64,000 nt of DNA from a virus, in the IMG/VR virus record IMGVR_UViG_3300045988_134667, positions 8,223 to 72,222 of that record, one strand, 5' to 3'. The translations under genes were made by a program, and so were the position numbers. Positions 10,274 to 63,348 of the stretch are shown here, piece after piece. Under the pieces are notes generated by a model. That model was not told the DNA's origin. It saw nothing but the letters and a program-made list of their open reading frames with translations, and ran no database searches. Every line of letters starts with the position of its first letter. Within the stretch, counting starts at the first letter, position 1.

Positions 10274-11203
10274 ATGTGTAAGAGAGTTTATTTAACAGCA
10301 AAAGAAGCAGAAATGGAAATGCAGGAATCACGGAACGCAGAAGGATTTACTGGCAAAATGGAAACTGATTATATTTCACGGATGATTAAGGACGCAAAAC
10401 GAAACAGTATGGTTGGAGATAAGCTTCAGCTTGTAGTAGATCCAATGTATATCCACATTCCTGAATGGCAGAGAAGATTAAAACTTACAAGAGCATACGC
10501 AATCGGTAATACATATAACAAATACAAATGGGATGTTCCGAAGGTACTGTTCCACAAAGGCAGATTGTATGTTATTGATGGTCAGCACAGAATATATGGC
10601 GCATTTAAGGCGAAAATGGATTCCGTAGTGGTTGAAATCATGGAATGTTCACTCGAAGAAGCAATTGATTTGTTTATCAATCAGTCACAGGATAGAGTGA
10701 AAATGCAGCCTATGGATATTTATAAGGCTGCTATTGCAGGTGGTAAGGGAGATTATGTGAAATTACAGGAAATTTGTCACAAGAATAATGTTGCAGTAAA
10801 AGGAGATGATGATAATGAAAACACAGTAGGAACGCTTACATCTATTTCTGATGGAGTAAAGTTGTCAAAGACAAACCCAGAGCTTCTTGATTCAATGCTT
10901 GCTCTGCTTGGAAAGCTTGGTTGGAACGGATATGCAGATTCTTACAACGGAAAAGCATATACCGCAAAAATTATTCGTGCTTTAAAAGCATTATATGCAT
11001 ACACAGAAGGCAGAACAGATGAAATGGAGAAAGCCTTAATTAAGCATTATAAAGGAACTGAATATTTTGTTGAGAATGTAATGGATAAAACACAAGCACA
11101 AATTTTTGATTATTTGTCTGAAATTGTCCGTTATGAAATGGAAAGTCCATTTACAGATAAAAATAAAACTGCAAAGAAAACAGCAAAAGTAAAAGCAATG
11201 TAA
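10274..11203 (+). CDS. ParB/sulfiredoxin-superfamily nuclease-domain protein with a DGQHR motif (DndB-like)
   Basis: YVIDGQHRIYGAF motif; SD AAGGAGG. Confidence 0.65.
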   Translation: MCKRVYLTAKEAEMEMQESRNAEGFTGKMETDYISRMIKDAKRNSMVGDKLQLVVDPMYIHIPEWQRRLKLTRAYAIGNTYNKYKWDVPKVLFHKGRLYVIDGQHRIYGAFKAKMDSVVVEIMECSLEEAIDLFINQSQDRVKMQPMDIYKAAIAGGKGDYVKLQEICHKNNVAVKGDDDNENTVGTLTSISDGVKLSKTNPELLDSMLALLGKLGWNGYADSYNGKAYTAKIIRALKALYAYTEGRTDEMEKALIKHYKGTEYFVENVMDKTQAQIFDYLSEIVRYEMESPFTDKNKTAKKTAKVKAM

Positions 11204-28763: not shown

Positions 28764-29039
28764 GTGATAATAATGAATATGGGAAATCCAAAAAGAGCAT
28801 CAAGATTTTTATGTCTTCACTGTATGAAAATTAATCAGTTAGGAAGTGGTATACAGAGAAATGGAAATCAGCGTAAGAAGAAACATATCAAAGACTTAAC
28901 ATGTTTTAATGAAGGCTGTAATGGAGAAATCACGAAAAACGTAGAAATTCGTTGGTGTGACGATTATCTGGAAATGTTGGATTATGCTCAACGAATTAGA
29001 TCACGTTATTATACGGATAAAGTAGAGAATAATATGTAG
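28764..29039 (+). CDS. zinc-binding small protein
   Basis: CLHC...CFNEGC pattern. Confidence 0.45.
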   Translation: MIIMNMGNPKRASRFLCLHCMKINQLGSGIQRNGNQRKKKHIKDLTCFNEGCNGEITKNVEIRWCDDYLEMLDYAQRIRSRYYTDKVENNM

Positions 29040-29043
29040 GAAG

Positions 29044-29325
29044 GTGGAATATAGTATGGAAAATTATAAAATTAGTTATAATGGTGATACTCAAATTAAA
29101 AATATTCACCATATAGGTGTTGATTATAATGGAAATTATTATAGCGTGATTTTCGGAGAATATGTAAATGGAGGATTCTTTAGTATTCCGAACTGGAATT
29201 GCGGTGGTGAGTTAGCTGGGCTTAGTGATGTGTTTTGGAATACAGAATCTATTCAGAAATCATTAAAAAGTAAAAGAGCAGCTAAAGCTATTGCAAAAGC
29301 GATAGAAGATTACACAAAGGAGTGA
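29044..29325 (+). CDS. hypothetical protein
   Basis: ORF track. Confidence 0.5.
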   Translation: MEYSMENYKISYNGDTQIKNIHHIGVDYNGNYYSVIFGEYVNGGFFSIPNWNCGGELAGLSDVFWNTESIQKSLKSKRAAKAIAKAIEDYTKE

Positions 29326-30326
29326 TGATTATGTGTTACAAAATAGAAGTACAAAACAAAAATGCTGAAAAGCTTAATAGGAAGTTGGATGAGTTAAACG
29401 CACCACAGTTTTTAAGAGATTACTTGAATGAGTTGGAAAGCAAGAACGGAGCGTTAAATTATCTAGTGGCAATTAAAGATTTTTTACAGTGGTTGATTGA
29501 AAGCAATATTATTAATAAGAAATCAATTTCTGAAATAGAAGTTTCTGATTTTAGTGACTTGCGACCACAAAATATTAGTTCATACCTTAGATACAAGGAA
29601 ACAAATGGAATGTCGCCAACCACAACGGAGACAAGAAAAAATATCATTAAAAGTTTCATACAGGATATTTATTCATACAGAGAATGTTTATTAAGAGAAA
29701 TTTATAGCAACATAGAAGATTTTTACAAAATGATTAAATATAAAGGAATCCCATCTGGTAATAACTTGACTAAAAAACTTCCAACAGAAAAGCAGCTTAA
29801 TGATATGGAAGAGAAAATAATGTGGAAGAAAGATGAATGTGTGAGGAATAGGAATATTGCTATCTTTCGAGTTTTAAGAGGAACTGGAATAAGAGAATCT
29901 GAACTTGCCGGTTTGGATTTATCAGATTTACATTTAGATGAAGAAATGCCATATATTACTATTCTTGGTAAAGGTGTGTACAGAGAAATGCAAAACAGAA
30001 CTGTATATCTTAGCGGATCTGCTCTGAAGGCATTAAGAGAATGGTTAGAATACAGAAGTACCTTAGATAATATTGTAGATACGGAAGCAGTTTTTGTAAA
30101 TAAAAACGGTACACGTACAACAGAAAGAAATATCAAACAGATATTTGAAAATTATGGCAATGGAATTACACCACATATGATGAGACATTATTATGCTAGT
30201 GTAATGAATCAGAATGGGAATCTTGCATTTGTACAACAGCAGCTTGGGCATAGTAGTGTGAATACAACGGTTAATAATTATGCAAACGGAGCTGTTGGAA
30301 TGAAAGAAAAATTAATGGAGATGTGA
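29325..30326 (+). CDS. int: tyrosine recombinase / phage integrase
   Basis: C-terminal catalytic signature RGTGIRESEL ... HMMRHYYAS ... LGHSSVNTTVNNY (R, H-x-x-R and the Tyr nucleophile). Confidence 0.8.
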   Translation: MIMCYKIEVQNKNAEKLNRKLDELNAPQFLRDYLNELESKNGALNYLVAIKDFLQWLIESNIINKKSISEIEVSDFSDLRPQNISSYLRYKETNGMSPTTTETRKNIIKSFIQDIYSYRECLLREIYSNIEDFYKMIKYKGIPSGNNLTKKLPTEKQLNDMEEKIMWKKDECVRNRNIAIFRVLRGTGIRESELAGLDLSDLHLDEEMPYITILGKGVYREMQNRTVYLSGSALKALREWLEYRSTLDNIVDTEAVFVNKNGTRTTERNIKQIFENYGNGITPHMMRHYYASVMNQNGNLAFVQQQLGHSSVNTTVNNYANGAVGMKEKLMEM

Positions 30327-30328
30327 TT

Positions 30329-30523
30329 ATGGTTGAATATATTGGAAATAAAATCAGAACTGAAAAGAGAATAACAGTAAGAGGACTGGCAAAAGCTGCC
30401 GAAGTTGCTCCAAGTACGATTAGCAAGTGGGAAAATGGAAGTGCTGTTCCTGACTTAGCTGTACTTGATTTGGTTGCCAAAGCTATGAAAGTGCAACCAT
30501 TTGATCTTGTTAAATTTGTGTAA
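30329..30523 (+). CDS. XRE-family HTH regulator
   Basis: ITVRGLAKAAEVAPSTISKWENGSAVPDLAVLDLVAKAM. Confidence 0.65.
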   Translation: MVEYIGNKIRTEKRITVRGLAKAAEVAPSTISKWENGSAVPDLAVLDLVAKAMKVQPFDLVKFV

Positions 30524-30536
30524 TATGTATACGACA

Positions 30537-30755
30537 CTATTTCTTAGTGTCGCAGATAAAAATATCGTTTGGTGTACAATTTAACGCCTGGCATATTTTC
30601 TCGATAGTATCAAAACGAATGCTTTTTGTTTTTTCATTACAAATGTCACCAATATTATTACTAGAAATTCCAGTAGTTTTAGATAACCAATACTGTGTTT
30701 TCTTTTGATCTGCAAGAATTTGTTTGAGGTTTATTCTCATATTATATTCCTCCAT
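30537..30755 (-). CDS. XRE-family HTH regulator (repressor-like, divergent from the toxin operon)
   Basis: KKTQYWLSKTTGISSNNIGDICNEKTKSIRFDTIEKICQAL. Confidence 0.65.
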   Translation of the reverse strand: MEEYNMRINLKQILADQKKTQYWLSKTTGISSNNIGDICNEKTKSIRFDTIEKICQALNCTPNDIFICDTKK

Positions 30756-30810
30756 ATAAATTATTTAAAAATATAATACCAAAAAATATCATATTTTTCA
30801 ATAATATATC

Positions 30811-30839
30811 TTGACATATGATATGCATGGGTATATAAT
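30811..30839 (+). promoter_or_regulatory. consensus promoter TTGACA, 17 bp spacer, TATAAT, with flanking inverted repeat ATATCATAT / ATATGATAT
   Basis: -35 at 30811-30816 and -10 at 30834-30839. The operator-like inverted repeat straddles the -35, in the divergent region between the two HTH genes and the toxin gene. Confidence 0.65.
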
Positions 30840-30911
30840 GCAAAGCATAAGAAGTAAACAAGAAGCAAACAAAACGTAGGACATTACATAAGAAGAAAGG
30901 AGGTAAAAGGA

Positions 30912-31277
30912 ATGACTGTAAACTTTGGGTATGTTATGATGATTGACTTTGGAGAAGATAAAATTAATTCAGTTCAAGTAGGAGTAAGACCGGGCGTAAT
31001 CATTCAGAACGACATCGGGAACAAATATTCTCCGACCTCAATAGCTGTTCCTTTGACCAGTGAAATCAAGAAATTAAATATGCCATGTCATAAAGTCCTA
31101 CATATGAACGAACAAAATGGCTTGACGGAAGATTCAATGGTGCTTGGAGAGCAAGTAAGGGTAATTGACAAAAATTCGATATTATACAAAATGGGCACTT
31201 TAAACGATGGTGAATGTGATCTTGTCGTTAAAGCATATTTTGCAAATATACCTAGAAGGAGGGTTAATTGTGGCTGA
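30912..31277 (+). CDS. MazF/PemK-family endoribonuclease toxin-like protein
   Basis: GYVMMIDFGEDKINSVQVGVRPGVIIQNDIGNKYSPTSIAVPLTSEI. RPGVIIQND is the PemK/MazF fold signature. SD AAAGGAGG. Confidence 0.65.
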   Translation: MTVNFGYVMMIDFGEDKINSVQVGVRPGVIIQNDIGNKYSPTSIAVPLTSEIKKLNMPCHKVLHMNEQNGLTEDSMVLGEQVRVIDKNSILYKMGTLNDGECDLVVKAYFANIPRRRVNCG

Positions 31278-31572
31278 ATATAAGAGTATTACAAAGAAAG
31301 AATTGACAGAATTACTTGATAAATATCCAGAAGATAAAGAGTTTAGTATTATCCAAACTCAACTTGGAATGACAATTATTCCATTAGGAGAGCGGATAGC
31401 AAATAAAGTAGATATTTTGGAAATTGCGAATGCAGCAAAAACAATGATTTATTCAGAGAATAAATTCATGTCACAAGTTGATATGCACAGCGTAAGGCAA
31501 GATATATTTAATATAGAAAGAAATGGAATAATGGATACGTTGTTGCTACCTAGATTTTCTAATAAAGAATAA
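31270..31572 (+). CDS. hypothetical protein co-transcribed with the MazF-like gene (possible cognate partner)
   Basis: GTG start with SD AGGAGGG; overlaps the toxin gene by 8 nt. Confidence 0.45.
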   Translation: MAEYKSITKKELTELLDKYPEDKEFSIIQTQLGMTIIPLGERIANKVDILEIANAAKTMIYSENKFMSQVDMHSVRQDIFNIERNGIMDTLLLPRFSNKE

Positions 31573-31653
31573 CTTTAGTGTCCTATAATTAGGACACCAT
31601 ACATATTAGAATGAAAACATGAACAAGAAATCGAACAAGTGTTTGTTTTATAC

Positions 31654-31682
31654 TTGACACAAACATATGTTTGGACTATGAT
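31654..31682 (+). promoter_or_regulatory. promoter TTGACA, 17 bp spacer, TATGAT, with the 14-bp palindrome CAAACATATGTTTG in the spacer; likely drives the tRNA cluster
   Basis: -35 at 31654-31659 and -10 at 31677-31682; a perfect palindromic operator sits inside the spacer. Confidence 0.55.
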
Positions 31683-31881
31683 TATTATTGTAAGAGAAAT
31701 AATGGAAATAAAAAACAGTCCGAATGACGTGGCTGCAACCACATATGTCATTCAGACTGTAACTCAACCAACCAAGATTAAGTCATTACATATTTTGGCA
31801 TAATTTTCCAGTTATGTCAAGTTCAGTATGGCTAAAATCATAGCCTGTTTCCAATATTTTATCAAAATTTAATAATTTTAT

Positions 31882-31954
31882 AGGGCATTCGCCAAGTGGT
31901 AAGGCACAGGATTTTGATTCCTGCATTACATCAGTTCGAATCTGATATGCCCTG
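31882..31954 (+). tRNA. tRNA-Gln (anticodon UUG)
   Basis: Cloverleaf with acceptor AGGGCAT/ATGCCCT, D-arm GCCAAGTGGTAAGGC, anticodon stem CAGGA/TCCTG with loop TTTTGAT, and T-loop TTCGAAT. Architecture is nearly identical to E. coli tRNA-Gln. Confidence 0.8.
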
Positions 31955-32113
31955 CTTTGTGACATTCCACCCGGTATGTTACAGAACGCAAGTGATTTCC
32001 TTGTAAGAGCAAAATGTGTAGTTGCTATAGTTCTACCATAGTTTAATCCACTAACGGATTACAAGCTGATACTATAGAACTTCCTGATAAACTTGCGATA
32101 GTGTCAGCTACTT

Positions 32114-32187
32114 GGATCATTAGCACAATTGGTTAGTGCATTCGGCTCATAACCGAAAGGCTCAGAGTTCAAGTCTCTGATGATCCA
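32114..32187 (+). tRNA. tRNA-Met or initiator/Ile-lysidine type (anticodon CAU)
   Basis: Acceptor GGATCAT/ATGATCC, D-arm GCACAATTGGTTAGTGC, anticodon stem TTCGG/CCGAA with loop CTCATAA, T-arm CAGAGTTCAAGTCTCTG. Confidence 0.8.
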
Positions 32188-32212
32188 TTGCTAAATCAAA
32201 CAAAGAGAGGAG

Positions 32213-32829
32213 ATGATTACGTTGGCACAATATGTAATTACAGACGGTTCTCGTTGGATTATGAGAAATCGTAATGGTAAATATGTTCCAACATCTTGCG
32301 AGGCATTGGCTGATACATTTTCAAATAAAGCAGCCAATAATCTATATAATAACTCGCTACCCAAAGCCTTGAAATCAGTATTTCATATCCAGAAAATTGA
32401 TACCCCACCAGATAATGTAAAGCAGATTACACAATCAGAAGTGGAAAATAATACCGAAAAAGTTATGGTTGCTGAAAATATCTAGAAATGGATTGACAAA
32501 ATAACTGATCTTAATGGATTAGCAACAGATGCATTACATAGAAAAGAAGAGCTGTGTGAAGAACTTAGCTTTGTAGACAGGGAATTATCTGATATCAATC
32601 ATTATATAGAATTTTGTAATCTTAATGCAGCACAAGGATGGAAGGCATATAAGATGATAAAGGAACGGAGAATAAAAAGAAGAAGTATCAAAAATGAGAT
32701 ACAAATTCTTAACATTATTCTTGATAAAAAGATTTCTGACACAGTTACAAATGAGATTTTGGAATCCATGTCGAAAATGGATAAGCGTACATATGAACCA
32801 CGAGTAATGAACGAGTTGTTTGATTTGTA
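32213..32829 (+). CDS. paralog of the 25057..25650 product, interrupted by an in-frame TAG at 32483-32485 (pseudogene or amber read-through)
   Basis: Track ORF 32213..32485 ends in TAG. The same frame continues without further stops to TAA at 32827-32829, with no start codon until a late ATG. Homology to the intact paralog spans both sides of the TAG. Confidence 0.5.
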
Positions 32830-32845
32830 AAGGAAGGATATACAT

Positions 32846-33025
32846 ATGGTGATTTGTAAAAGGTGTTATACACCTATGGTTGGTGTTATGTCATTCTCAA
32901 AGAACAAGCATGAGAAATTCTGTCGTTGTCCGAAGTGTTGTTCAGAGACACGGCATATAAAAATCAATGATAACGAGTTGAGTTTTGGAGAGATATTACA
33001 TAGAGAAATCAAGAAGGGAAAGTAA
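32846..33025 (+). CDS. zinc-ribbon small protein (59 aa)
   Basis: SD AAGGAAGGA; MVICKRCYTPM...CRCPKCC. Confidence 0.5.
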   Translation: MVICKRCYTPMVGVMSFSKNKHEKFCRCPKCCSETRHIKINDNELSFGEILHREIKKGK

Positions 33026-33032
33026 TTACATA

Positions 33033-33593
33033 ATGGAAATACAACAAATATTGGAATGGTACTGTGATAATGAAATGTATCAGTTAAAAAAGATGTGTTA
33101 CCCAATGTTGATAAAGATTGGAGGTATATCTGACAAAGATTATGACGACTTTTACAGTATCGCTTTAAGTGTATTATCAGACACCGCATTAAGATTTGAT
33201 TCAGAAAAAGAAATAGATTTTGATTCATTCTTAGCCAGTAACATTAAGCGAAAGTTTAAAACCGAGATTCGTGATCGTAATCGTGAAAAACGTATTCCTG
33301 CTAAGAAAATTGAGAGTACAAGTAATCTTGTTACAGAAGATGGACTGGAACTTGGAGAAACCATTCCATCAAAGTTTGATACATATGAAACTGCTTGTGA
33401 GTATTTGTTTGAAGGTACTAAGATCCAAAGATATTTGGATAAGTTATCATATACACAACGCAAAATCGTTTCGCTATTATCTAATGGATATAAAGCAAAA
33501 GAAATCAGAGAATTATTACATATGGATAGCAAACAATATTCTAATAATCTTGCAGCTATTCAAGCATATGAAAATGTAAAAATTTTAATGTAA
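33033..33593 (+). CDS. sigma-70-family RNA polymerase sigma factor (phage-encoded, ECF/late-sigma-like)
   Basis: Region-2-like YDDFYSIALSVLSDTALRFD and region-4 HTH LSYTQRKIVSLLSNGYKAKEIRELL. Confidence 0.7.
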   Translation: MEIQQILEWYCDNEMYQLKKMCYPMLIKIGGISDKDYDDFYSIALSVLSDTALRFDSEKEIDFDSFLASNIKRKFKTEIRDRNREKRIPAKKIESTSNLVTEDGLELGETIPSKFDTYETACEYLFEGTKIQRYLDKLSYTQRKIVSLLSNGYKAKEIRELLHMDSKQYSNNLAAIQAYENVKILM

Positions 33594-33612
33594 ACATAAG
33601 GAGGAAATAGTC

Positions 33613-35049
33613 ATGGCAAAGAAGGTAAGAGAAGAAAATATTCCATTGATTAACTATACCAGTGAGGTAAAAGATGGAGATGTTAATGACAATCAGGATG
33701 TACAGAGATATTTCTGTAGTGACAAGCCATTCGTTAATGGAATTGGTGTTACGATTCTAACTGGCGACTATCTTCCACCTTTAATTTTAGCTGAAGTTCC
33801 TTTAAATGAGGATATTGTACAAAAATATATTGTAGATGGTCTTCAGAGAACAACCGCATTAATGCAGATTAGATATGGGAATCATAAATTTACTGGTGCT
33901 ATTGAAGATAGTGAAATTGAGTACCAAGAAAAGCAGGTAGATGAAAATGGAAAATTTTTAAAAGATGAAGATGGGAATTTTGTATGGGAAAAGAAAACAT
34001 TTGATATTAAAAATAAAACATATGATGATTTTCCAAAAGAACTGAAGAAACGATTTGACAACTATCAGCTCAGAATTGCCACATATCAAAATTGTGATAT
34101 GAAAAAGGTAAGCAAATTGGTAAGAAAGCTGAATGTACAAAGAGGAATGAATACAAGTCAGAGAGCATTGACTTGGATTCCTACATATGCAAGAAAAATT
34201 AAAAATATTGCTGATGAAGGATTTTTTAAAAATAGTATTGAGTATTCTGACACTGCTAGGAAAAATGGAGAATATATGCAGAGCGTATGCCGATCTGTTA
34301 TGAATGTTTTTCATTTTGATGACTACAAACGTGGTGCAAAAGAAATATGTGATTATCTCGAAGATAATAGTAACATTGAAGAATTCAATACAGTCCATGA
34401 ATATTTTCAAAGAATCGAAGCAGCTTGTAAAGATACTTGTAAAGATATTCTTGTTAAAAAAGATATTCCTGTATGGCTGACGGTATTTAGTAGATTTGTG
34501 AAAAGTGGTTTACAAGATAGTAAATTTGCTGATTTTATTCATGAGTTGTCAGGAAAATTGCATAGTACGGATGTTAATGGCGTTAGTTACGATTCATTAA
34601 ATAAGGAGTCTGGTACTACGGATAAAAAACTTGTAGTTGCTAAAATTAATACATATACAGCTTTGATGAATGAATTTTTACATATTGATACAAGAGAAGT
34701 AAATGACACAGAATTGGAGAATAACAATACGGAAGAAAGTGCTGAAGAAAATACGGAAGAAAGTGTTCTTTCCTTTGTTCAAGAAAATACGAATCCAAAT
34801 GTGACGGACGAAGATATAAACCTTTACACAGACATGGTAGAAGATTGTGTGAAGATTGATGATCCCGTTTATAAAGAGTGTGGAATGGCATTAGTAGCAC
34901 TCATGGCTTATGCTTGTCAGAATGACAAGGATCAAGATTTTGAAAGATGGATTGAAAATTATCGCAATAAATCCGAATTTAGTCCATCGCAGAAAGTTAA
35001 TTATACATATATGAAACGCAGTTTTGATAATTTCGTAGCAAATGCGTAA
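33613..35049 (+). CDS. DUF262-like (ParB/GmrSD N-terminal nuclease-domain) protein with an acidic C-terminal region
   Basis: VDGLQRTTAL resembles the DGQQR motif of DUF262. 478 aa; SD AAGGAGG; forms an operon with the sigma factor. Confidence 0.55.
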   Translation: MAKKVREENIPLINYTSEVKDGDVNDNQDVQRYFCSDKPFVNGIGVTILTGDYLPPLILAEVPLNEDIVQKYIVDGLQRTTALMQIRYGNHKFTGAIEDSEIEYQEKQVDENGKFLKDEDGNFVWEKKTFDIKNKTYDDFPKELKKRFDNYQLRIATYQNCDMKKVSKLVRKLNVQRGMNTSQRALTWIPTYARKIKNIADEGFFKNSIEYSDTARKNGEYMQSVCRSVMNVFHFDDYKRGAKEICDYLEDNSNIEEFNTVHEYFQRIEAACKDTCKDILVKKDIPVWLTVFSRFVKSGLQDSKFADFIHELSGKLHSTDVNGVSYDSLNKESGTTDKKLVVAKINTYTALMNEFLHIDTREVNDTELENNNTEESAEENTEESVLSFVQENTNPNVTDEDINLYTDMVEDCVKIDDPVYKECGMALVALMAYACQNDKDQDFERWIENYRNKSEFSPSQKVNYTYMKRSFDNFVANA

Positions 35050-35634: not shown

Positions 35635-35670
35635 ATATAACAAAAGATATATTCTACAAAGGTGAAAAAG

Positions 35671-35982
35671 ATGAAGATAACAGGAATAATTCGGAGAGTC
35701 GATGATTTAGGTCGAATAGTAATTCCAAAGGAAATTAGAAGACAAGTGTTTGGAAAAACAGACGCATCTGGTGAGCCAATGGAAATATTTATTGACGGAG
35801 AAAATATTGTACTCCGAAGATATGAGGAAATACAAACATGTAAATGGATAAAATATGATTATAGAACGATTTGCCCTAAAGAACACGATGCAGGTAATCT
35901 ATATTGGAGAATACCCGAAGATATGGATAAGATAAAATATTGTCCTTATTGTGGCAAAGAAATAGTTATTGTAGATGAGTAA
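35671..35982 (+). CDS. AbrB/MazE/SpoVT-family DNA-binding domain fused to a C-terminal zinc ribbon
   Basis: RRVDDLGRIVIPKEIRRQV swapped-hairpin motif, followed by CPKEHD...CPYCGKE. Confidence 0.65.
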   Translation: MKITGIIRRVDDLGRIVIPKEIRRQVFGKTDASGEPMEIFIDGENIVLRRYEEIQTCKWIKYDYRTICPKEHDAGNLYWRIPEDMDKIKYCPYCGKEIVIVDE

Positions 35983-37584: not shown

Positions 37585-39642
37585 ATGGATGGATTTATGA
37601 TGTTTAAGAAGGCTTTACAGAAGCACTTCAATGAAATGCAGAAAGAGGCAACACATTTATTTGAGGTAAATGTAGATAAGGATGAATTATGGAATACATA
37701 TCTTGATAGCTTCCCTGCTGGTACAAATAATATTTTCAGAGAGCGTAGGGAACATGATTGTAGTTGTTGTAGACAGTTTATTAAGAATATTGGTTCTGCT
37801 GTCACCATCAAAGATAATCAGATTCACACAATTTGGGAACTGAATCTTGGCGATACAACATACCAGCCAGTGTGCGATGCACTTGACGCTTTTGTAAAGG
37901 CTCATACAGTTACAGATATTTATACAACTAAGTTCCCTAAAATTGGTACAGATTTTAACTTTGAGGAAATCAATGGAAAATCTCATCAGTGGGATCATTT
38001 CTTCTTAGAGCTTCCAAGCAAATTCGTAAATAGAAGTAGTCGTTCTAATGAGGAAGTTAAAGGACAGTTCAGAGATACAAGAAATGTATTTAAGCGTTCT
38101 CTTGATGAAATCACAATGGATGCGCTTGATACGATTCTTGAACTGATTAATTCCAATACGCTTTATAAGGGTGAAGAATGGAAGACTGTGCTCACAGAGT
38201 TTAAAAAGTACAAGAAAGAATATGATAAGTTGACATCTGAATCTGATAAGGAATTGTACGCTTGGGAGAAGTCTGTAACAGCAGGTATTGCAATTGGCAG
38301 AATTAGAAATCATTCTATTGGAACACTCCTTGTAAATGTGAGCGAAGATATGGATTTGGATACTGCTGTTAGAAAATATGAGCAGATTGTAGCACCGAGC
38401 AACTATAAAAGACCCAAGGCCATTTTCACAAAGAAGATGCTTGAGGACGCAAAGAAGACAATTACAGAACTGGGATATATGGATTCATTGCAGCGAAGAT
38501 TTGCTACTTTGAATGATATTACAGTCAATAATGTATTGTTCTCTAATAAGAGTGCTGCAAGAAGAATGAATGGTGCAAATGATATTTTTGGACAGATGGA
38601 AAAGGATGTTGTTGTAAGCCCTAAGAAGTTTTCTAAGGTCGAAGAGATTTCAGCACAGGATTTTATTGATAAGGTACTTCCAACTGCAAAAGAGATTGAA
38701 GCTTTTGTAGAAAATAAACATGAGAAGAACTTTGTTTCTATGATTGCACCTGTTAATCCAGACGCTAAGACAATGTTCAAATGGAATAATGGATTATCTT
38801 GGGCTTATTCAGGAAACATTACTGACTCTGATATGAAGCAGAATGTAAAAGCTGCTGGCGGTAATGTCGATGGTGTACTCAGATTTTCAATTCAGTGGAA
38901 CGAAGATGGACATGACAATTATGACCTTGATGCACATTGTGTTGAGCCAAATGGAACAGAAATCTATTATGGTAGTTACAAAGCACCAAGAATTACTTCT
39001 ATGGGCGGTCAGTTAGATGTTGATGTTATTAATCCATGTGGAAAAGTTGCAGTAGAGAATATTACATGGCAGGATTTATCAAGAATGAGACCAGGAACAT
39101 ATAGATTATTTGTACATCAGTATTCAGGTGCAGTAAGGCATGGATTCAGAGCAGAAGTTGAGTTCAATGGAGAGATTTATTCATTTGATTATAGTAACCC
39201 TATGAGAACTGGCGAGAATGTTCAGGTGGCAGAAGTTACACTTGATGAGAATGGCAACTTCTCAATTAAGGAAAAGCTGTCTGGAAGTTCATCTATTTCA
39301 AGTCGTGAGATTTGGGGTGTAAATACAAATCAGTTTGCTCCTGTATCAGTAATTAGTTACAGTCCAAACTATTTTGATGAACAGGATGGAATTGGTCATA
39401 GACATTTATTCTTCTTCCTGAAGGATTGTGTAAATAGTGAAGAGCCTAATGGATTCTATCTTGAGTTTCTTGACAATGATTTAATGAAGCATAAGAGAGT
39501 ATTTGAGGCTTTAGGTGCTAAGTGTCATGTAGAAGATACTGATGATCAGCTTTCAGGAATTGGATTCTCTATGACAAAGAGAGCAGATTTAGTTGTTAAG
39601 GTTAAGGGCGCAACAGAGCGTATAATGAAGATTAAGTTTTAA
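37585..39642 (+). CDS. large hypothetical protein (685 aa), no recognisable domain
   Basis: Longest ORF in the window; contains REHDCSCCRQF; followed directly by the 39663 gene. Confidence 0.7.
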   Translation: MDGFMMFKKALQKHFNEMQKEATHLFEVNVDKDELWNTYLDSFPAGTNNIFRERREHDCSCCRQFIKNIGSAVTIKDNQIHTIWELNLGDTTYQPVCDALDAFVKAHTVTDIYTTKFPKIGTDFNFEEINGKSHQWDHFFLELPSKFVNRSSRSNEEVKGQFRDTRNVFKRSLDEITMDALDTILELINSNTLYKGEEWKTVLTEFKKYKKEYDKLTSESDKELYAWEKSVTAGIAIGRIRNHSIGTLLVNVSEDMDLDTAVRKYEQIVAPSNYKRPKAIFTKKMLEDAKKTITELGYMDSLQRRFATLNDITVNNVLFSNKSAARRMNGANDIFGQMEKDVVVSPKKFSKVEEISAQDFIDKVLPTAKEIEAFVENKHEKNFVSMIAPVNPDAKTMFKWNNGLSWAYSGNITDSDMKQNVKAAGGNVDGVLRFSIQWNEDGHDNYDLDAHCVEPNGTEIYYGSYKAPRITSMGGQLDVDVINPCGKVAVENITWQDLSRMRPGTYRLFVHQYSGAVRHGFRAEVEFNGEIYSFDYSNPMRTGENVQVAEVTLDENGNFSIKEKLSGSSSISSREIWGVNTNQFAPVSVISYSPNYFDEQDGIGHRHLFFFLKDCVNSEEPNGFYLEFLDNDLMKHKRVFEALGAKCHVEDTDDQLSGIGFSMTKRADLVVKVKGATERIMKIKF

Positions 39643-40889: not shown

Positions 40890-42467
40890 ATGAGTAGTAT
40901 TTTAAGCAACTTAGGAATGGTAATTCCGATTGTAGCAATTGTATTAGTTGTAGTTGGTTTGTTAGTAGCAGGTTATGTAAAGGCTTCACCTGATAGAGCA
41001 TACATAATTTCTGGACTTAGGAAAGAACCAAAGGTGTTAATTGGTAAAGCTGGAATCAAGATTCCGTTTTTAGAAAAGAAAGATGAGCTGAATTTGCAGT
41101 TGATTCCAATTGATGTAAAGACAAGTAGTGCAGTTCCAACAGCAGATTATATTAATATTAATGTAGATGCTGCGGTCAACATAAAGGTAAGTTCAGACAA
41201 TACAAGATTACAGCTTGCAGCTCAAAACTTCTTAAATAAGCCAGTTGATTATATTGGAAGGGTGGCAAGAGAAGTTCTCGAAGGAAATATGAGAGAAATT
41301 GTTGGCAAGATGAATTTAGAGGAAATGGTTTCAGATAGACAGAAATTTGCCGAACTTGTAAAAGAGAATGCAGAACCAGATCTTGCAGCTATGGGACTTG
41401 ACATTGTAAGTTTCAATGTACAGAACTTTGTTGATGAAAATGGTGTTATTGAGAACCTTGGCGTAGATAATATTGTTAAGATTCAGAAAAATGCAGCTAT
41501 CTCAAGAGCCGAAAGTGAAAAAGAGATTGCAAAAGCAAGAGCTATCGCAAAGAAGGAAGCAAACGATGCGGAAGTAAGTTCTGAATTAGAAATTGCAAAT
41601 GCACAGGCTGAAGCTCAGAAGAAGAAAGCAATCGTCCAGGCTAATGCTAATAGAGAATCACAGGAAGCTCAGATTGAAGCAGATACTCTTATTGCACAGA
41701 AAGAGAATGAACTTGCAATTAAAAAGGCAGAATTACAGAAAGATGCTGATACAAAGAAAGCAAGTGCAGATGCAGCATATAATATTCAGCAGGAAACAGA
41801 GAGAAAGACAGTTGAGATTGCAACTGCTGATGCAAATCTTGCCCGTCAGGAAAAGGCTATTACTTTAAAAGAGAAAGAAGTAGAACTTACAGAGAGAACT
41901 CTTGAGGCAACAGTAAAGAAACAGGCAGAGGCAGATAAATACGCAAAACAGCAGGAAGCAGATGCTAAGTTATACGAAACTCAGAGACAGTCAGAAGCAA
42001 AACTTTTCGAGAGGCAGAAGAATGCTGAAGCAGAAAAGTTTGAGCAGGAAAAGAAAGCAGAAGCTGAAAAAGCAACAGCAGATGCCAACAGATATACAAT
42101 GGAACAGGAGGCAGAAGGTATTCGCAGCAAAGGACGGGCAGAAGCGGATGCGATTAAAGCAAAAGCATTAGCAGAAGCAGAAGGTATTGAAAAGAAAGCA
42201 GAAGCCATGAAACAGATGGGCGAAGCTGCGGTATTAGAGATGTACTTCAAAGCGATGCCTGAGATTGCGAAGAATATTGCAGAACCGCTTGCGAAGGTTG
42301 ATAAGATTACAATGTACGGTGATGGAAATTCATCTAAACTGATGAAAGATATTATGAATACTCTTAACCAGGTAACAGATGGAATGAAAGAATCTACTGG
42401 CATTGATCTTAGTTCTGTACTTGCTGGTTTTGCAGGTGCAAAGATTGCTGACAAAACACAGAAATAA
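40890..42467 (+). CDS. flotillin / SPFH (band-7) family membrane protein (FloT/YuaG-like)
   Basis: N-terminal TM segment (VIPIVAIVLVVVGLLVAGYV), an SPFH core, a long Ala/Glu/Lys-rich flotillin-repeat region (EAQKKKA, AEAEK), and a 525-aa length typical of bacterial FloT. Confidence 0.75.
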   Translation: MSSILSNLGMVIPIVAIVLVVVGLLVAGYVKASPDRAYIISGLRKEPKVLIGKAGIKIPFLEKKDELNLQLIPIDVKTSSAVPTADYININVDAAVNIKVSSDNTRLQLAAQNFLNKPVDYIGRVAREVLEGNMREIVGKMNLEEMVSDRQKFAELVKENAEPDLAAMGLDIVSFNVQNFVDENGVIENLGVDNIVKIQKNAAISRAESEKEIAKARAIAKKEANDAEVSSELEIANAQAEAQKKKAIVQANANRESQEAQIEADTLIAQKENELAIKKAELQKDADTKKASADAAYNIQQETERKTVEIATADANLARQEKAITLKEKEVELTERTLEATVKKQAEADKYAKQQEADAKLYETQRQSEAKLFERQKNAEAEKFEQEKKAEAEKATADANRYTMEQEAEGIRSKGRAEADAIKAKALAEAEGIEKKAEAMKQMGEAAVLEMYFKAMPEIAKNIAEPLAKVDKITMYGDGNSSKLMKDIMNTLNQVTDGMKESTGIDLSSVLAGFAGAKIADKTQK

Positions 42468-45412: not shown

Positions 45413-46933
45413 ATGGAATTAACACGTCTGCTAAAACCATAGGAAAAAAATAATTATTGTGAGTTAAGTGTAATTGAGCTTTGTAGTGGTATTGGTGCGC
45501 AGATGAAGGGAATTGATAATACTCATCTATTTAATGCAAATATGATTGCAACAGCAGATTTAGACAAAGAAGTAGTAGTTAGTTATGCTGCAATGCATTG
45601 TGGTTTGACTAATGAGATGATTGAAAACTATGAAGATTATCCAAGCAAAGAAGAAATGGTAAGACAGCTTACAGATAAGAGACTTGGATATGATTTTAAG
45701 AAAGATGTTCCGTATGATTGGGAAAAACTTTCACGAAAGAAGAACAAGACAAAAGGTATTGAGAAATATTGGTTAGCAGACCATATTTCACATAATCTTG
45801 GCGATATGATGCAGATTGAGTCACTGCCATATAGTGATTTACTTACATACTCGACTCCATGCACAGATTTGTCAATCGCCGGTAAACAGGAAGGATTAAA
45901 GTGGACATGTCATGATTGTGGTTGTGAATATGATCCATCAGAATTAGATGTAGATACTCGTTATACTTGCCCTAATTGTGGCAGTCACAACATTAAATCA
46001 ACTCGTTCAGGTTTATTGTATGAAGTTGAGAGACTTCTTGTAAAAGCAAAAGAGAATAATACATTACCAAAGTATTTGCTTATGGAGAATGTAGATGCTC
46101 TTGTATCAAAGAAGTATATTGACAGTTTTAAGGATTGGCTGATTCGACTTGATAATTTGGGATATAACTCATATTATCAGACAATCAATGCAAAGAATAC
46201 AGGTATTCCACAGAATCGAAATAGAATCTTCTGTATCTCTATTCGTAAGGATATTGATACCAAGTCTTTTGAATTTCCACAGCCTTTTGATACAGGAATC
46301 AGATTAAAGGATTTATTAGAAACAGATAGCAGTGTTTTGGAGAAATATTTCTTATCTGATGAAGTACAGAAAAGACTTCAGATAACAGATCCAAAATTTG
46401 AAAAGAATATTGTTGGTACTACAAAACCTGAATTCAGAACTATCGGTCAGAGAGATTTAGTTTATCAGCAGGATTCAGTAATGGGTACTTTAGTGGCAAC
46501 TGATTATAAACAACCAAAACAGATTCTTGCCAATTCAAATAATATAAATAGACTTTTTAATATTTATGGTGAAAATAAAGGAACTGGATTTGCAGGAAAT
46601 GTTTGGGATAAAGATTATATTTCTCCAACAATAACAACATGTCAAGGAGGAAATCGGCAACCAATGGTCGAAGAAGAGAGAGACAATTTGAGAGTTGTGA
46701 GAAAGCTTACGCCAAAAGAGTGCCATAGGCTTATGGGATTCGATGATGTTGATTATGAGAACTGTAAAGCAGTTGGAATGTCTGATACTCAGGGATATAA
46801 ACAAAGCGGTAACAGTATAGTAACAACTTGCATCTCTTTGTTGATTGAGCATTTATATAAGGCTCAGTATGACAATACATATATTTGTACAGATGAGAAG
46901 ATGGTAAATTTTCATCAGCCACAAGCGGATTAA
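45413..46933 (+). CDS. DNA (cytosine-5)-methyltransferase with a zinc-ribbon insertion. Motif I is encoded upstream of the track ORF start (45503), separated from a possible ATG (45413) by an in-frame TAG (45440-45442).
   Basis: Within track ORF 45503..46933: motif IV STPCTDLS, motif VI LLMENVDAL, motif VIII GIPQNRNRIF, motif X GNSIVTT, and an inserted CHDCGC...CPNCGSH. Motif I (IELCSGIGAQ) is read at 45473-45502 in the same frame, with no ATG, GTG or TTG between the TAG and 45503. Confidence 0.7.
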
Positions 46934-47780: not shown

Positions 47781-49140
47781 TACAATAGAGAGTCAGTTAT
47801 TGACTCTCTATAACAGAGGAGGTGAAACAATATAAATAAAGCGGAAAGACATGTAATAAACAAAAACCATCCAATGTATTTAGCTTGTGATAACTTATGT
47901 TTTCTGGCAAAGAATATGTATAATTTATGCAATTATACAATTCGCCAAGAATTCTTTGAGACAAAGAAAGTTAAGAAGTATGGTGACTTAAATAAGGAAC
48001 TAAAACATACAGATGCTTTTATGGAACTTGGATCAAATGCAGCACAGATGGTTACAAAAGCATTGTGTAAGTCTTGGAAATCATTTCTTGTATCAGTTAA
48101 AGATTATACTATTCATCCAGAAAAGTATTTGGGAAAACCTAAGATACCAGCTTATAAAAAGAAAGACGGTAGATTTGTTTGTACTTTAACTAATATGCAG
48201 ACTAAAGTGAAAGATGGTTATTTGTATTTTGCTTTTAAGAGAATGAAAGAGTATAACAATTTAATTCTCACAAAAGTTACAGGTCATCATTTGTCTACGA
48301 GAATTGTTCCAAAAGGTGGTTGTTATATTATTGAAATTGTTTATGACGATGAAAAGCAATGTAAAAGTGAATTGGATAGAAACAGAATTGCTTCGATTGA
48401 TTTAGGTGTAAATAACTTTGTAACAATGGTAAATAACATAGGAGAATCTTCTATTGTTATAAATGGCAAAGGAATTAAATCTTATAATCAGTATTGGAAT
48501 AAAAAGGTTTCTAAATTAAGAAGTATTGCGAAAACCGTAAATGGATCTGATTGGACTAAACAGATGCAGAGCCTTACAAATAAAAGATATTTCAAGATGG
48601 AGTATTTCATGCATTGTGCGAGCAAATGGATTGTTAGTTATTGTGTGAAACATAATATTGGAACACTTGTTATTGGTAAGAATGATGGTTGGAAACAGAA
48701 AACAAATATGTGTAAAATTACAAATCAGACTTTTACTCAAATACCATACGAAAGTTTTCTTGAAAAGCTTGGATATAAGTGTGAAGAAACTGGTATAGAT
48801 TTGATTAAAACAGAAGAAGCTTATACTTCAGGAACTTCTTTCTTAGACAATGAGTTACCTGTTAAAGAAAATTATAACAAGTCAAGAAGAGTTTATAGAG
48901 GATTATTTAAAAGCAACAACGGAGAATATATAAATGCCGATGTTAATGGTGCATTTCAAATAATGCGTAAAGTATTCTCAAATGTAAAAGCAGATGAGAT
49001 AGTGGGTGCATATTCACACCCTGTAATTATAAATTTGTAATTGTAAATGGAAAATAAAAAGCCAATGAATGCCAAGATTGATTCAATGCATGAGAAAAAT
49101 CTGTTTAAATTACAGCCAATGCCAAGTTTTGTGTATCAGG
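47781..49140 (+). mobile_element. IS200/IS605-family element carrying tnpB only (IS1341-like); right boundary approximate
   Basis: Perfect subterminal hairpin ATAGAGAGTCA-gttat-TGACTCTCTAT at 47785-47811, immediately upstream of tnpB. Repeated GCCAATG(A)ATGCCAAG segments lie downstream of tnpB, in the expected right-end / guide-RNA region. Confidence 0.55.
47874..49040 (+). CDS. tnpB: TnpB (IS605 OrfB-type RuvC-like RNA-guided nuclease family)
   Basis: RuvC-I IASIDLGVNNF, RuvC-II IGKNDGW, RuvC-III ADVNGAFQIMRKV. The usual CxxC zinc finger appears to be replaced. Confidence 0.7.
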   Translation: MYLACDNLCFLAKNMYNLCNYTIRQEFFETKKVKKYGDLNKELKHTDAFMELGSNAAQMVTKALCKSWKSFLVSVKDYTIHPEKYLGKPKIPAYKKKDGRFVCTLTNMQTKVKDGYLYFAFKRMKEYNNLILTKVTGHHLSTRIVPKGGCYIIEIVYDDEKQCKSELDRNRIASIDLGVNNFVTMVNNIGESSIVINGKGIKSYNQYWNKKVSKLRSIAKTVNGSDWTKQMQSLTNKRYFKMEYFMHCASKWIVSYCVKHNIGTLVIGKNDGWKQKTNMCKITNQTFTQIPYESFLEKLGYKCEETGIDLIKTEEAYTSGTSFLDNELPVKENYNKSRRVYRGLFKSNNGEYINADVNGAFQIMRKVFSNVKADEIVGAYSHPVIINL

Positions 49141-51365: not shown

Positions 51366-52466
51366 ATGAAAATTATTGAAACAGGAACTACGTATAAGGT
51401 GTATGGTGAAGATTTAGTCGTATTAGACAATCTACCAGCCCAGACATACAAAGTCGGATTTGGTCAGTTCACAGGTTTCTTCTTAGAGAAGCAGAATGAA
51501 TTAGAGATTAAAGAGGATAAAATCTACGGAGTTCACGAAGAAAAAGCGAATAAGGTATTGAACAGATTTGAGAAGTCACGCAAAAATTTAGGTGTAATTC
51601 TCAGTGGGGATAAAGGGATTGGAAAGTCATTGTTTGCAAGATTATTGGCACAGAAAGCAATTCAGAATGGTATTCCTGTTATCTTAGTCGATGATTTTAT
51701 TCCTGGTATTGATGATTTCTTAAATGATATTAAGAATGAAGTGCTCGTGTTATTTGATGAATTTGATAAAACTTTCGCTAGAAGTAAAGACAACGATCCA
51801 CAGTCAAAAATGCTTTCCTTATTTGATGGTACAAGTTCAGGTAAGAAGTTATTTGTCGTTACATGCAATAATTATAGGAATTTGAACGAGTATCTTATTA
51901 ATAGACCAGGAAGATTTCATTTCCACTTCAGATTTGAGTATCCAACGGCAGATGAAGTAAAGGATTATTTGAGAGATAAGCTTAATGAGAAATACCATTC
52001 TGAAATCAATAAAGTAGCTTCATTCTCAAGAAAGATTAAGCTTAATTACGATTGTTTATCAGCTATCGCACTTGAATTAAATGAGGGCGAAACATTTGAG
52101 GATGCTATTAAGGATCTGAATATTGTTAAGTCCGAAGGACAGAATACATACAAACTTACATTGTTTACAGATGAAGGTGTTGTATTCAGTTCAAATGATG
52201 TAAGAATTGATTTATTCAGTGGAGAAAATAACAATATCTGGGTTGAAGATTCAGCAGATAATGGTATTTACATCAACTTCAAGGGTAACAGCGCAGTATT
52301 TAATAATAAGACCAATTCATTTGTTTTACCAAATGACAAAATTAAGGTTGATTATGATGAGGATTATATTGATGAAAAGCTGAGAGATATGTATAAAAAT
52401 CTGCATTATACTTATGCTGAGATTACATTGAATTATGGTAATCGCATTCACTATAACTTAGTGTAA
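51366..52466 (+). CDS. AAA+ ATPase
   Basis: Walker A GDKGIGKS, Walker B VLVLFDEFD, sensor VVTCNN, arginine-finger region RPGRF. Confidence 0.75.
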   Translation: MKIIETGTTYKVYGEDLVVLDNLPAQTYKVGFGQFTGFFLEKQNELEIKEDKIYGVHEEKANKVLNRFEKSRKNLGVILSGDKGIGKSLFARLLAQKAIQNGIPVILVDDFIPGIDDFLNDIKNEVLVLFDEFDKTFARSKDNDPQSKMLSLFDGTSSGKKLFVVTCNNYRNLNEYLINRPGRFHFHFRFEYPTADEVKDYLRDKLNEKYHSEINKVASFSRKIKLNYDCLSAIALELNEGETFEDAIKDLNIVKSEGQNTYKLTLFTDEGVVFSSNDVRIDLFSGENNNIWVEDSADNGIYINFKGNSAVFNNKTNSFVLPNDKIKVDYDEDYIDEKLRDMYKNLHYTYAEITLNYGNRIHYNLV

Positions 52467-62490: not shown

Positions 62491-63348
62491 ATGCCAGTAC
62501 ATGATGATTTAGGCGTTAGGATGAAGACATTTTATGAGCAGATCCCAAAGACAAAACTGATGAGAAGGTGTCCAGTTGCTATCCGCATTGATGGAAAAGC
62601 GTTTCACACATTCACAAGAGGATTCCAGAAACCGTTTGATGAAGTGTTAATTAAGTCTATGCAGGAAACAATGAAATACTTATGTGAGAATATTCAGGGC
62701 TGTGTTCTTGGTTACACGCAGTCAGATGAGATTACACTAATTCTTATTGATTATAAGAAGCTCACATCTTCCGCATGGTTTGATTATGAAGTGCAAAAGA
62801 TTTGTAGTATTGCTGCAAGTATGGCTACGATGGCATTTAATACATTCTTTGCTAAAAATGTTTATTTTACTGATAAGTTTGATGAACATGGGAATATCAT
62901 TGACGAAGAATATGTTTCTATTCATTTAGCCCATGTCAAAGCAGTTGACAAAGGTGCAATGTTCGATGCTCGTTGTTTCAATATTCCAAAAGAAGAAGTG
63001 ACAAATCTCATATATTGGAGACAATTAGACGCTTCTCGTAATTCAATTCAGATGGTAGGTCAAGCCAATTTTTCACACAAGGAATTACAGAATAAGTCAT
63101 GTAATGATATTCAAAACATGCTTATGACTCAGAAAGATATTAACTGGAACGATTTACCGACTTATCAGAAGAGAGGAAGCTGTTGTGTAAAAATGTATCA
63201 GACTGCTAATGGTGTTTTTGAAAGTCATGCAGAAGATGAATTAGTCGAAAATGGCAGGACATATTGGAGTATTGATACAAATATCCCTATTTTCAAGGGC
63301 GAAGGTAGAGAATATATTGATAGGTTAGTATTCGTTGGTGAAGAGTAA
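62491..63348 (+). CDS. Thg1-like protein (tRNA-His guanylyltransferase / 3'-5' nucleotidyltransferase family)
   Basis: VAIRIDGKAFHTFTRGFQKPFDEVLIKSM resembles the Thg1 N-terminal catalytic-core segment. MFDARCFNIPKEEVTNLIYWRQLD matches the downstream Thg1 WRQ region. Confidence 0.6.
   Translation: MPVHDDLGVRMKTFYEQIPKTKLMRRCPVAIRIDGKAFHTFTRGFQKPFDEVLIKSMQETMKYLCENIQGCVLGYTQSDEITLILIDYKKLTSSAWFDYEVQKICSIAASMATMAFNTFFAKNVYFTDKFDEHGNIIDEEYVSIHLAHVKAVDKGAMFDARCFNIPKEEVTNLIYWRQLDASRNSIQMVGQANFSHKELQNKSCNDIQNMLMTQKDINWNDLPTYQKRGSCCVKMYQTANGVFESHAEDELVENGRTYWSIDTNIPIFKGEGREYIDRLVFVGEE

Follow-up and report, generated by a model that had tools for sequence, protein, structure and literature searches.

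Organization of the locus

We analyzed a 64,000-nucleotide (nt) stretch of the virus record IMGVR_UViG_3300045988_134667 (record positions 8,223 to 72,222), which we call the window and whose own positions are used throughout. The subject is a mazF-like toxin gene, the 100-codon gene that follows it (orf100), and a small divergently transcribed regulator gene (xre2), which may together form a toxin-antitoxin-like cassette. Reading of the sequence and a listing of the open reading frames (ORFs) between 28000 and 33000 gave the layout in Table 1: a recombinase gene and xre1 on the plus strand, a hairpin, xre2 on the minus strand, a 171-bp intergenic region, and then mazF and orf100, both on the plus strand.

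Several elements of this layout had been described in a first-pass annotation of the sequence. A tyrosine integrase gene had been placed upstream of the cassette, and a recombinase gene is found there. The two XRE regulators, by contrast, do not diverge around the promoter as had been claimed; they are convergent, tail to tail, and have the hairpin between them in common, which is likely a bidirectional terminator for both genes. Only xre2, not xre1, diverges from mazF, and the promoter lies between these two genes. This promoter had been reported as a perfect consensus, and it matches at all 12 positions. Both arms of the inverted repeat that was said to bracket it exist as 9-mers, but they do not bracket it, since the right arm lies in the spacer of the mazF promoter and the left arm in that of the likely xre2 promoter. 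Downstream of orf100, a hairpin that lacks a U-tract on the plus strand possibly marks the end of the operon. Beyond it lie a second near-consensus promoter, genes for tRNA-Gln and tRNA-Met, a sigma-factor-like gene, and a ParB/GmrSD_N-like gene.

Table 1. Features of the cassette and its immediate flanks, in window positions
Feature	Position	Strand	Remarks
Xer-like tyrosine recombinase	29322..30326	+	Pfam Phage_integrase, E = 1e-28; context gene, outside the cassette proper
xre1, 66-aa helix-turn-helix (HTH) protein	30323..30523	+	Pfam HTH_3, E = 1.6e-11; start overlaps recombinase stop
Hairpin CGACACTA-tttct-TAGTGTCG	30532..30552	.	8-bp perfect inverted repeat between xre1 and xre2
xre2, 67-aa HTH_26 repressor candidate	30537..30740 (ORF to 30755)	-	Pfam HTH_26, E = 5.2e-19
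Likely xre2 promoter, TTGAAA-17-TG-TATTAT	30773..30801	-	10/12 consensus plus extended -10; putative
Left 9-mer ATATCATAT, operator candidate	30786..30794	.	Inside xre2 promoter spacer
mazF promoter, perfect TTGACA-17-TATAAT	30811..30839	+	12/12 match
Right 9-mer ATATGATAT	30816..30824	.	Inside mazF promoter spacer
UACAUA, candidate self-cleavage site	30885..30890	+	mazF 5' untranslated region (UTR), just 5' of the Shine-Dalgarno (SD) sequence
mazF-like gene, 121 aa, EndoA/MazF-family endoribonuclease homologue	30912..31277	+	PF02452, E = 8.9e-18
orf100, 100 aa, GTG start, putative antitoxin	31270..31572	+	Without family match; coupled to mazF
Hairpin after orf100	31576..31599	.	Stem conserved, loop variable

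A MazF homologue without an upstream antitoxin

The 121-aa product of mazF matched the Pfam family PemK_toxin with 64.9 bits (cut-off, 23.1) over profile positions 3 to 102 of 109, and it also matched phrog_1936, annotated as "MazF-like growth inhibitor" (E = 2.6e-20). A phmmer search of the PDB returned Bacillus subtilis EndoA (4ME7, 4MDX, and 1NE8; E of about 1.5e-17, residues 6 to 108), Staphylococcus aureus MazF (4MZM; 3.8e-16), and PemK (4HKE; 6.4e-16). In the EndoA alignment, the GVRPG/GVRPV segment pairs Arg26 with the catalytic Arg25 and the PLTSE/AITAQ segment pairs Thr49 with Thr48, the residue whose replacement in the T48A variant of B. subtilis MazF yields an RNase-dead protein (PMC10769878). 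The IQNDIGN core of EndoA is kept as well. Judged by sequence homology, on which the assignment of the fold rests, the gene is a genuine EndoA/MazF-family toxin homologue with its catalytic residues intact, in agreement with the MazF/PemK identity given to it at first pass.

No antitoxin-like ORF was found upstream of mazF, as the first-pass annotation had stated, and the promoter region and the divergent HTH gene occupy that place instead. No MazE-like protein or GYxEMAxINL motif was found anywhere in the 64-kb window, where a MazE profile built from 41 bacterial neighbors reached a best E value of 0.17. Among the nearest bacterial relatives of the toxin, which are at most 59% identical, at least 41 of 80 loci have a small ORF that abuts mazF on its upstream side; the GYxEMAxINL motif is common to these ORFs, and a subset of them match Pfam families of the ribbon-helix-helix (RHH) type, as canonical MazE does. 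The phage module resembles the Bacillota MazEF system (EndoAI/EndoA, encoded by ndoAI-ndoA in B. subtilis) in its toxin family and in having a two-gene operon with a tightly linked partner. However, the order is reversed in the phage, with the toxin first, regulation seems to be delegated to a separate divergent gene, and the partner has neither an RHH/AbrB DNA-binding domain nor the GYxEMAxINL toxin-binding tail. The missing upstream antitoxin, together with a partner that lacks a DNA-binding domain and a MazE tail, places the phage module outside the canonical mazEF family.

A promoter-like motif, TTGACA-16-CAAAAT, was observed at 31165 to 31192, where conserved IDK codons in the 3' part of mazF form it some 80 nt before orf100. 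It could serve as an internal promoter for extra expression of the partner, of the kind known from other toxin-first systems; in L058, the motif is not conserved.

The partner protein and its linkage to the toxin

The start of orf100 overlaps the mazF stop by 8 nt (GTGGCTGA), and its GTG codon at 31270 is preceded by a good AGGAGG; the overlapping GTG-start gene had thus been called correctly. The two genes are tightly coupled and belong to one operon. Searches of Pfam, PHROG, PADLOC, and NCBIfam gave no match for the product. Fifteen close homologues came from an initial search, a word-indexed profile search extended these to 39 proteins, and HMMER, run exhaustively over 1.84 billion cluster representatives, gave 52 clusters of the family (50% identity). 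The members are unnamed proteins of 78 to 142 aa, with the exception of two long repeat proteins that match part of the profile. A tblastn search with orf100 as the query gave no match, and a search for orf100 patterns in 185,579 species genomes detected no relative.

AlphaFold2, run on an alignment of 26 sequences, predicted one compact alpha/beta domain for orf100 (predicted local distance difference test score, 86; predicted template modeling score, 0.76) with the topology b-a-b-b-a-b-b-b and without a DNA-binding motif. No relative was found among solved structures, and the BFVD search returned one uncharacterized gut-phage protein. In profile comparisons with hhalign, orf100 showed no similarity to SPbeta YosL or to B. 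subtilis MazE. By these comparisons, orf100 is neither a MazE/PemI-type antitoxin nor a mimic of the YosL/AimX type. We also considered that orf100 might be an acidic RNA mimic, an idea left unsupported by the isoelectric points of its homologues, which run from 4.9 to 9.8 across lineages.

The evidence that connects orf100 with the toxin starts with 53 loci in IMG/VR that encode MazF relatives (loci are designated by L-numbers). All loci with a MazF at least 59% identical to that of the window carry an orf100 homologue directly downstream, and the same arrangement recurs in the distant L020 and L028, whose MazF proteins are 37 to 44% identical. In three further loci from a search of representatives (L143, L145, and L148), the partner immediately follows the PemK gene. 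All contexts of sufficient length, namely, the window, L016, L058, L062, L020, L028, L143, L145, and L148, have the partner directly 3' of PemK/MazF, and the two genes are separated by -8 to +17 nt; the short contigs L142 and L150 end in MazF C termini. A hidden Markov model built from the close subfamily only matched the partners in L145 (6e-11), L148 (5.5e-9), and L143 (6.2e-9) in a database of 8,241 ORFs, and the L143 partner matched that of L028 with 2e-26 and orf100 of the window with 1e-10. By these matches, homology across the family holds without circularity. The identities of toxin and partner co-vary (Spearman coefficient, 0.87), and the partner diverges faster, as would be expected if it were the cognate binding partner of the toxin. 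We conclude from synteny and co-divergence, the basis on which neutralization is proposed, that orf100 is probably a new kind of MazF antitoxin.

Phage MazF-like genes without an upstream antitoxin were also observed in L019, L024, L029, L045 to L052, L017, and L055 to L057. The genes closely downstream of these encode a tetratricopeptide-repeat-like protein of about 190 aa, proteins of 288 to 322 aa, a 124-aa "macoilin family protein," or an integrase, and several of these loci have a perfect TTGACA-17-TATAAT 60 to 110 nt upstream of mazF. It may be general for phage MazF that the toxin gene comes first and that the partner downstream varies.

An exchangeable regulator adjoins the mazF promoter

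The mazF promoter is the sole TTGACA-17-TATAAT in the 64-kb window, against 0.06 expected, and 6 of 100 shuffled sequences have at least one. A perfect promoter lies directly upstream of mazF in six lineages (those of the window, L006, L016, L058, L143, and L145). On the other strand, the position of the likely xre2 promoter fits a leader of about 26 nt to the xre2 SD sequence, and the two back-to-back promoters are nearly 2-fold symmetric. The right 9-mer abuts the -35 box in the mazF spacer, and the left 9-mer is located correspondingly in the likely xre2 promoter, which is on the opposite strand; this placement is suggestive of operators. Translation of xre2 likely starts at 30740, since GGAGG precedes the second ATG and the 67-aa call is also that of the identical metagenome contig L001. 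XRE2 is a bare HTH protein of 67 to 72 aa, without an oligomerization or cleavage domain. The second regulator gene, xre1, occurs in the window-type lineage only and is absent from L016 and L058.

The regulator varies between lineages that have nearly the same toxin. In L006 to L011 and L013 to L015, an unrelated RHH-like protein of 57 aa (Pfam RHH_5, only E = 0.008) takes the place of XRE2, while mazF, orf100, and the 5' UTR stay approximately 97% identical across the exchange; the break point is the -10 box, and the promoter spacer is swapped as well. Lineage-specific palindromes lie in or beside the perfect promoter: TGACAAgTTGTCA in L006, CAACCgaaaGGTTG in L016, three TTCAACT-N4-AGTTGAA sites in L058, AATATATACTCTTGA repeats in L143, and AT-rich repeats in L145. 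A divergent HTH_26 gene stands beside the toxin-partner pair in the window, L016, L058, L062, L143, and L145. The regulator and the operator-like palindromes swap together and thus look like the exchangeable part of a self-contained cassette. This co-swapping is the strongest argument for a small repressor acting on the mazF promoter, and it argues against XRE2 as an antitoxin or as the master repressor of the phage. The first-pass proposal of direct repressor control of the toxin therefore survives in part: the co-swapping makes XRE2 a good candidate for a repressor of the mazF promoter, but its identification as a CI/Cro-type regulator is not supported.

The same data bear on the idea that XRE2 itself is the antitoxin, of a HigA/HipB-like XRE type, and that orf100 is an unrelated passenger. 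Antitoxins with an XRE fold are common, and XRE2 gave weak NCBIfam matches to Y4mF/HipB-coupled and PezA proteins (E of about 3e-4, far below the cut-offs). However, XRE2 is divergently transcribed, consists of a DNA-binding domain only, is replaced by the RHH-like protein while MazF is maintained, and is absent from L020 and L148; the protein that accompanies MazF universally, and that diverges together with it, is orf100, not XRE2. We consider an antitoxin role of XRE2 highly improbable.

Several features were observed in the noncoding region from 31573 to 31881, whose conservation of 97% among close relatives exceeds that of the neighboring integrase gene and xre1. It holds the second promoter, TTGACA-17-TATGAT at 31654 to 31682, with a perfect palindrome, CAAACATATGTTTG, in its spacer. 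Since relatives of the XRE2 type and of the RHH type have the same CAAACATATGTTTG operator candidate, it would be bound by a different regulator, for which XRE1 is a possibility. The leader of about 190 nt that leads to tRNA-Gln folds far better than shuffled sequences (-50.6 kcal/mol; z = -5.4) and had no match in Rfam.

A candidate cleavage site in the toxin message

According to a preprint (bioRxiv 10.64898/2026.08.06.743204), MazF of Bacillota cleaves at a conserved site, UACAUA. The corresponding TACATA occurs 25 to 37 nt before the start of mazF, immediately ahead of the SD sequence, in the lineages of the window, L002, L006, L058, L020, and L028, where it is kept though the remaining leader has diverged; L143, L145, and L148 keep TACA at this position. 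In the window, a second UACAUA lies inside mazF (31099), and none is present in orf100. Cleavage at UACAUA would thus inactivate the message of the toxin and spare that of the partner.

We also asked if the phage avoids the MazF site in order to protect its own transcripts and rejected this, since on the coding strand TACAT occurs 115 times (96 expected) and TACATA 55 times (46 expected). Without such avoidance, a MazF with the specificity of EndoA would, if left unrestrained, also cleave the messages of the phage, which favors a repressed or neutralized state most of the time.

Recombinase and phage context

The recombinase matched the XerC, XerS, and XerA models of NCBIfam with E values of about 1e-34, below the curated cut-offs. 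It adjoins the mazF pair in the lineages of the window, L016, L058, L020, L028, L143, and L148, and a recombinase stands beside a MazF pair also in Thomasclavelia phage TR-TP2. In L145, the cassette of regulator, MazF, and partner has no integrase nearby, and its neighbors look nonphage. The linkage to the integrase is thus positional and recurrent, and the claim that the toxin is wired into an integrase switch was not sustained. The phages of the family from which the window comes have genomes of 80 to 200 kb with about 32% guanine plus cytosine, come from gut-type metagenomes, and encode mostly small proteins of unknown function on the plus strand. No MazF relative more than 61% identical was found in the 185,579 species genomes; the sole 61% match lies on a contig of about 6.2 kb from a metagenome-assembled genome of an uncultured member of the Bacilli and carries the same cassette. 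No integrated prophage copies were found in reference genomes, an absence for which uncultured hosts may account. In a DNA search of positions 29000 to 33000 against cultured phages, the tRNA genes were the sole match.

These observations can be read in terms of a lysis-lysogeny switch, in which XRE2 would be the master repressor, the consensus promoter an early lytic promoter, and MazF the first early product, moderated by orf100 and acting as a host-shutoff or lysogeny-biasing RNase. The cassette directly follows the integrase in most big-phage lineages, the regulator is exchanged in the manner of a phage immunity cassette, and xre2 is essentially the sole minus-strand gene amid more than 50 kb of plus-strand genes. 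In L148, the distant lineage in which alone such a pair was seen, an ImmA/ImmR-like pair comes directly after the mazF pair. Perfect promoters also precede mazF in the regulator-free phages L019, L024, L029, and L045, as expected for immediate-early genes. In addition, host MazF promotes lysogeny in phage phi3T, whose proteins AimX and YosL block MazF (PMC10769878), and this precedent makes a life-cycle role of phage MazF plausible. Against such a switch, XRE2 lacks any domain beyond its HTH, and the hairpin after orf100, which transcription from the mazF promoter may still read through, is followed by the promoter at 31654 to 31682, whose own palindrome does not change with the type of regulator, so XRE2 is not its controller. 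The switch would also have to accommodate the integrase-free cassette of L145, the lack of site avoidance in phage transcripts, and the absence of close MazF relatives from species genomes beyond a single small contig, which leaves lysogeny unproven. Lambdoid CI/Cro systems differ further in that here the first rightward gene, in the position of Cro, encodes a MazF homologue that is not a DNA-binding protein, and xre1 lies on the far side of xre2. The CI/Cro-like switch of the first-pass annotation is therefore not supported, and a lysis-lysogeny switch in the wider sense seems to us rather unlikely. The cassette of L145 argues instead for an autonomous, separately regulated module.

A further reading concerns the role of the module rather than its anatomy and is compatible with such an autonomous cassette. 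Here the phage would be episomal, with its multimers resolved by the Xer-like recombinase and with the MazF pair as a post-segregational killing module, on the model of Cre/lox and phd-doc of P1. The similarity of the recombinase to XerC/XerS/XerA, its recurrent adjacency to the toxin pair, the ParB-like proteins encoded at 10274 to 11203 and 33613 to 35049, and the lack of integrated copies in reference genomes are in its favor. A 685-aa protein of phrog_1735 is 60% identical to one of pCD1602_4, a name suggesting plasmid origin. However, neither a replication initiator nor ParA was identified in the window, the Xer matches fall below the curated cut-offs, and the missing reference copies may have their reason in uncultured hosts. 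We regard plasmid-type maintenance as improbable.

Other genes of the window

Directly upstream of the recombinase gene and overlapping its start, a DUF6618 protein (E = 6e-42) is encoded at 29044 to 29325 and is 95 to 99% conserved in close relatives. Downstream of the cassette, a 90-aa ORF at 32213 to 32485 ends at an in-frame TAG (32483 to 32485) where relatives have CAG and a single 205-aa protein (L005, 7302 to 7919). There was no sign that genome-wide recoding of TAG lies behind this split gene (32213 to 32830), which looks like a nonsense variant of this genome. A sigma-70-like gene and then the ParB/GmrSD_N-like gene follow at 32985 to 35049. In several diverged lineages, such genes lie 0.7 to 1.7 kb 3' of the MazF pair, and they are near the cassette in L016, L020, L062, and L148, with a seemingly fused 698-aa ORF in L062. 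The proximity to a sigma gene echoes mazEF-rsb-sigB of Bacillus and Staphylococcus and may be a coincidence.

A 106-aa protein encoded at 35662 to 35982 combines an AbrB/SpoVT-type N terminus (TIGR02851, E = 2.7e-14) with a zinc ribbon, CxxC...CxxC, at its C terminus. It appeared as a faint MazE_antitoxin match among precomputed hits and was considered as an antitoxin acting in trans. This was rejected, because the protein is SpoVT/AbrB-like and tblastn located it in the closest relatives only (L001 to L004), with no match in the 12-kb loci that represent the remaining lineages. The 685-aa protein mentioned above (37585 to 39642; phrog_1735, E = 4.7e-267) has counterparts in 490 phage records, including phages of Salmonella, Klebsiella, and Bacillus, and is 58 to 61% identical to proteins of Bacillus phages of about 150 to 165 kb (TsarBomba, Bcp1, and BCP78) and of Clostridioides phage pCD1602_4. 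Between 40890 and 63348 lie accessory genes unusual for a phage, which encode an SPFH/flotillin protein (40890 to 42467), a C5 cytosine methylase (45503 to 46933), TnpB/IS605 OrfB (47874 to 49040), an AAA/STAND-like ATPase (51366 to 52466), a PcfJ-like protein (58642 to 59715), and a Thg1-like tRNA-His guanylyltransferase (62491 to 63348). Relatives have genes for a P-type ATPase, TerD, and SIR2 near the cassette. A Pfam search of 20 further proteins of the window gave little context.

A repressor, a toxin, and a separate neutralizer

The explanation that we favor, with some reserve, is an autonomous three-gene toxin-antitoxin-like cassette of repressor, MazF, and partner that is carried by large low-GC gut phages. 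The identities and order of the genes, the overlap, the promoter, the synteny, the co-divergence of toxin and partner, and the swapping of regulators are direct observations. The proposed mechanism starts with the divergent 67-aa XRE2, which would bind operators over the back-to-back promoters and repress both its own promoter and the consensus-strength, sigma-A-type promoter of mazF. When active, the latter would drive the two-gene operon, whose first product would be a sequence-specific endoribonuclease of the EndoA/MazF type. The translationally coupled, compact partner, which has no DNA-binding domain, would then bind and neutralize the toxin. A separate, exchangeable regulator would control transcription and would be needed because the neutralizer cannot do so. 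Finally, free toxin might cut its own message at the leader and internal UACAUA sites, tilting output toward the partner. The likeliest benefit to the phage would be stabilization or protection of the lysogen or episome, by addiction or by exclusion of other phages, or else tuning of the lysis-lysogeny decision.

A division of labor of this kind is found in omega-epsilon-zeta and in paaR-paaA-parE of Escherichia coli O157 prophages, which combine a separate small DNA-binding repressor, a toxin, and a neutralizer without a DNA-binding domain on a mobile element. The phage cassette shares with them the separate adjacent DNA-binding regulator, although this is not universal here. It differs in that MazF is not a zeta or ParE toxin, the regulator is divergent and does not head the operon, the gene order is toxin before putative antitoxin, and the fold of the partner is unrelated. 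The toxin gene also lies upstream of the neutralizer in the type II systems higBA, hicAB, mqsRA, and rnlAB. The downstream antitoxin of rnlAB has no classical DNA-binding domain, while those of higBA, hicAB, and mqsRA are HTH or zinc-HTH repressors; the toxin families of all four differ from MazF. Restriction-modification systems with a C protein are similar in that a small XRE-type controller at a strong promoter gates a potentially lethal gene on entering a new cell. XRE2 has weak matches to "Control_protein" of PADLOC (E = 0.0024) that are generic to HTH proteins, and no restriction or modification genes are involved here. Lastly, AimX and YosL of phi3T/SPbeta show that large Bacillota phages encode MazF-blocking proteins of about 50 to 120 aa. 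However, those phages target the MazF of the host and carry no mazF of their own, and AimX and YosL mimic the C terminus of MazE.

A number of observations weigh against the three-gene cassette. The net charge of the orf100 family varies so widely (isoelectric points of 4.9 to 9.8) that it is not uniformly acidic like the MazE C terminus, and just two columns are invariant across the family. The operator candidate of the window is a weak, AT-rich 9-mer with six matches against 3.5 expected, which is not unusual in AT-rich DNA, and its left arm is not conserved, reading ATATTATAT in L002, L005, and L012, whose xre2 is 92% identical. L020 and L148 have no divergent regulator, and UACAUA is absent from L016 and L062. 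Additionally, many other phage MazF-like genes have unrelated or no recognizable downstream genes, which suggests that a dedicated antitoxin may not be obligatory for phage MazF.

In a more far-reaching version, these phages would have internalized the MazF-based lysis-lysogeny circuit that phi3T runs on the MazEF of its host. MazF released from a repressor-gated promoter at entry or induction would trim host and phage transcripts as well as its own UACAUA leader, and orf100, as a MazF inhibitor of a structurally new class, would set the threshold of the decision. In that case, the recurrent occurrence of the cassette between the genes for the integrase and the phage sigma factor would have a functional meaning and not be incidental. 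We regard this version as improbable.

Implications

MazF is one of the most intensively studied toxins. To our knowledge, its antitoxins have always been described as upstream MazE/PemI-type proteins that double as repressors, and a literature search found no description of a downstream partner for a phage MazF. In at least nine diverged lineages, the gene after an unmistakable EndoA-type mazF encodes a protein of unknown fold, without a DNA-binding domain, and control of transcription seems to have passed to a divergent repressor that is exchangeable and acts on a consensus promoter. If orf100 is no antitoxin, the locus would be ordinary, one more phage "MazF-like growth inhibitor." If it neutralizes MazF, it would provide a new inhibitor scaffold for an RNase that is used in medicine and biotechnology and a further example of the free exchange of toxin-antitoxin partners. 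Overall, the cassette offers a testable entry into dormancy, exclusion, or host shutoff in the poorly known 80- to 200-kb gut phages of Bacillota.

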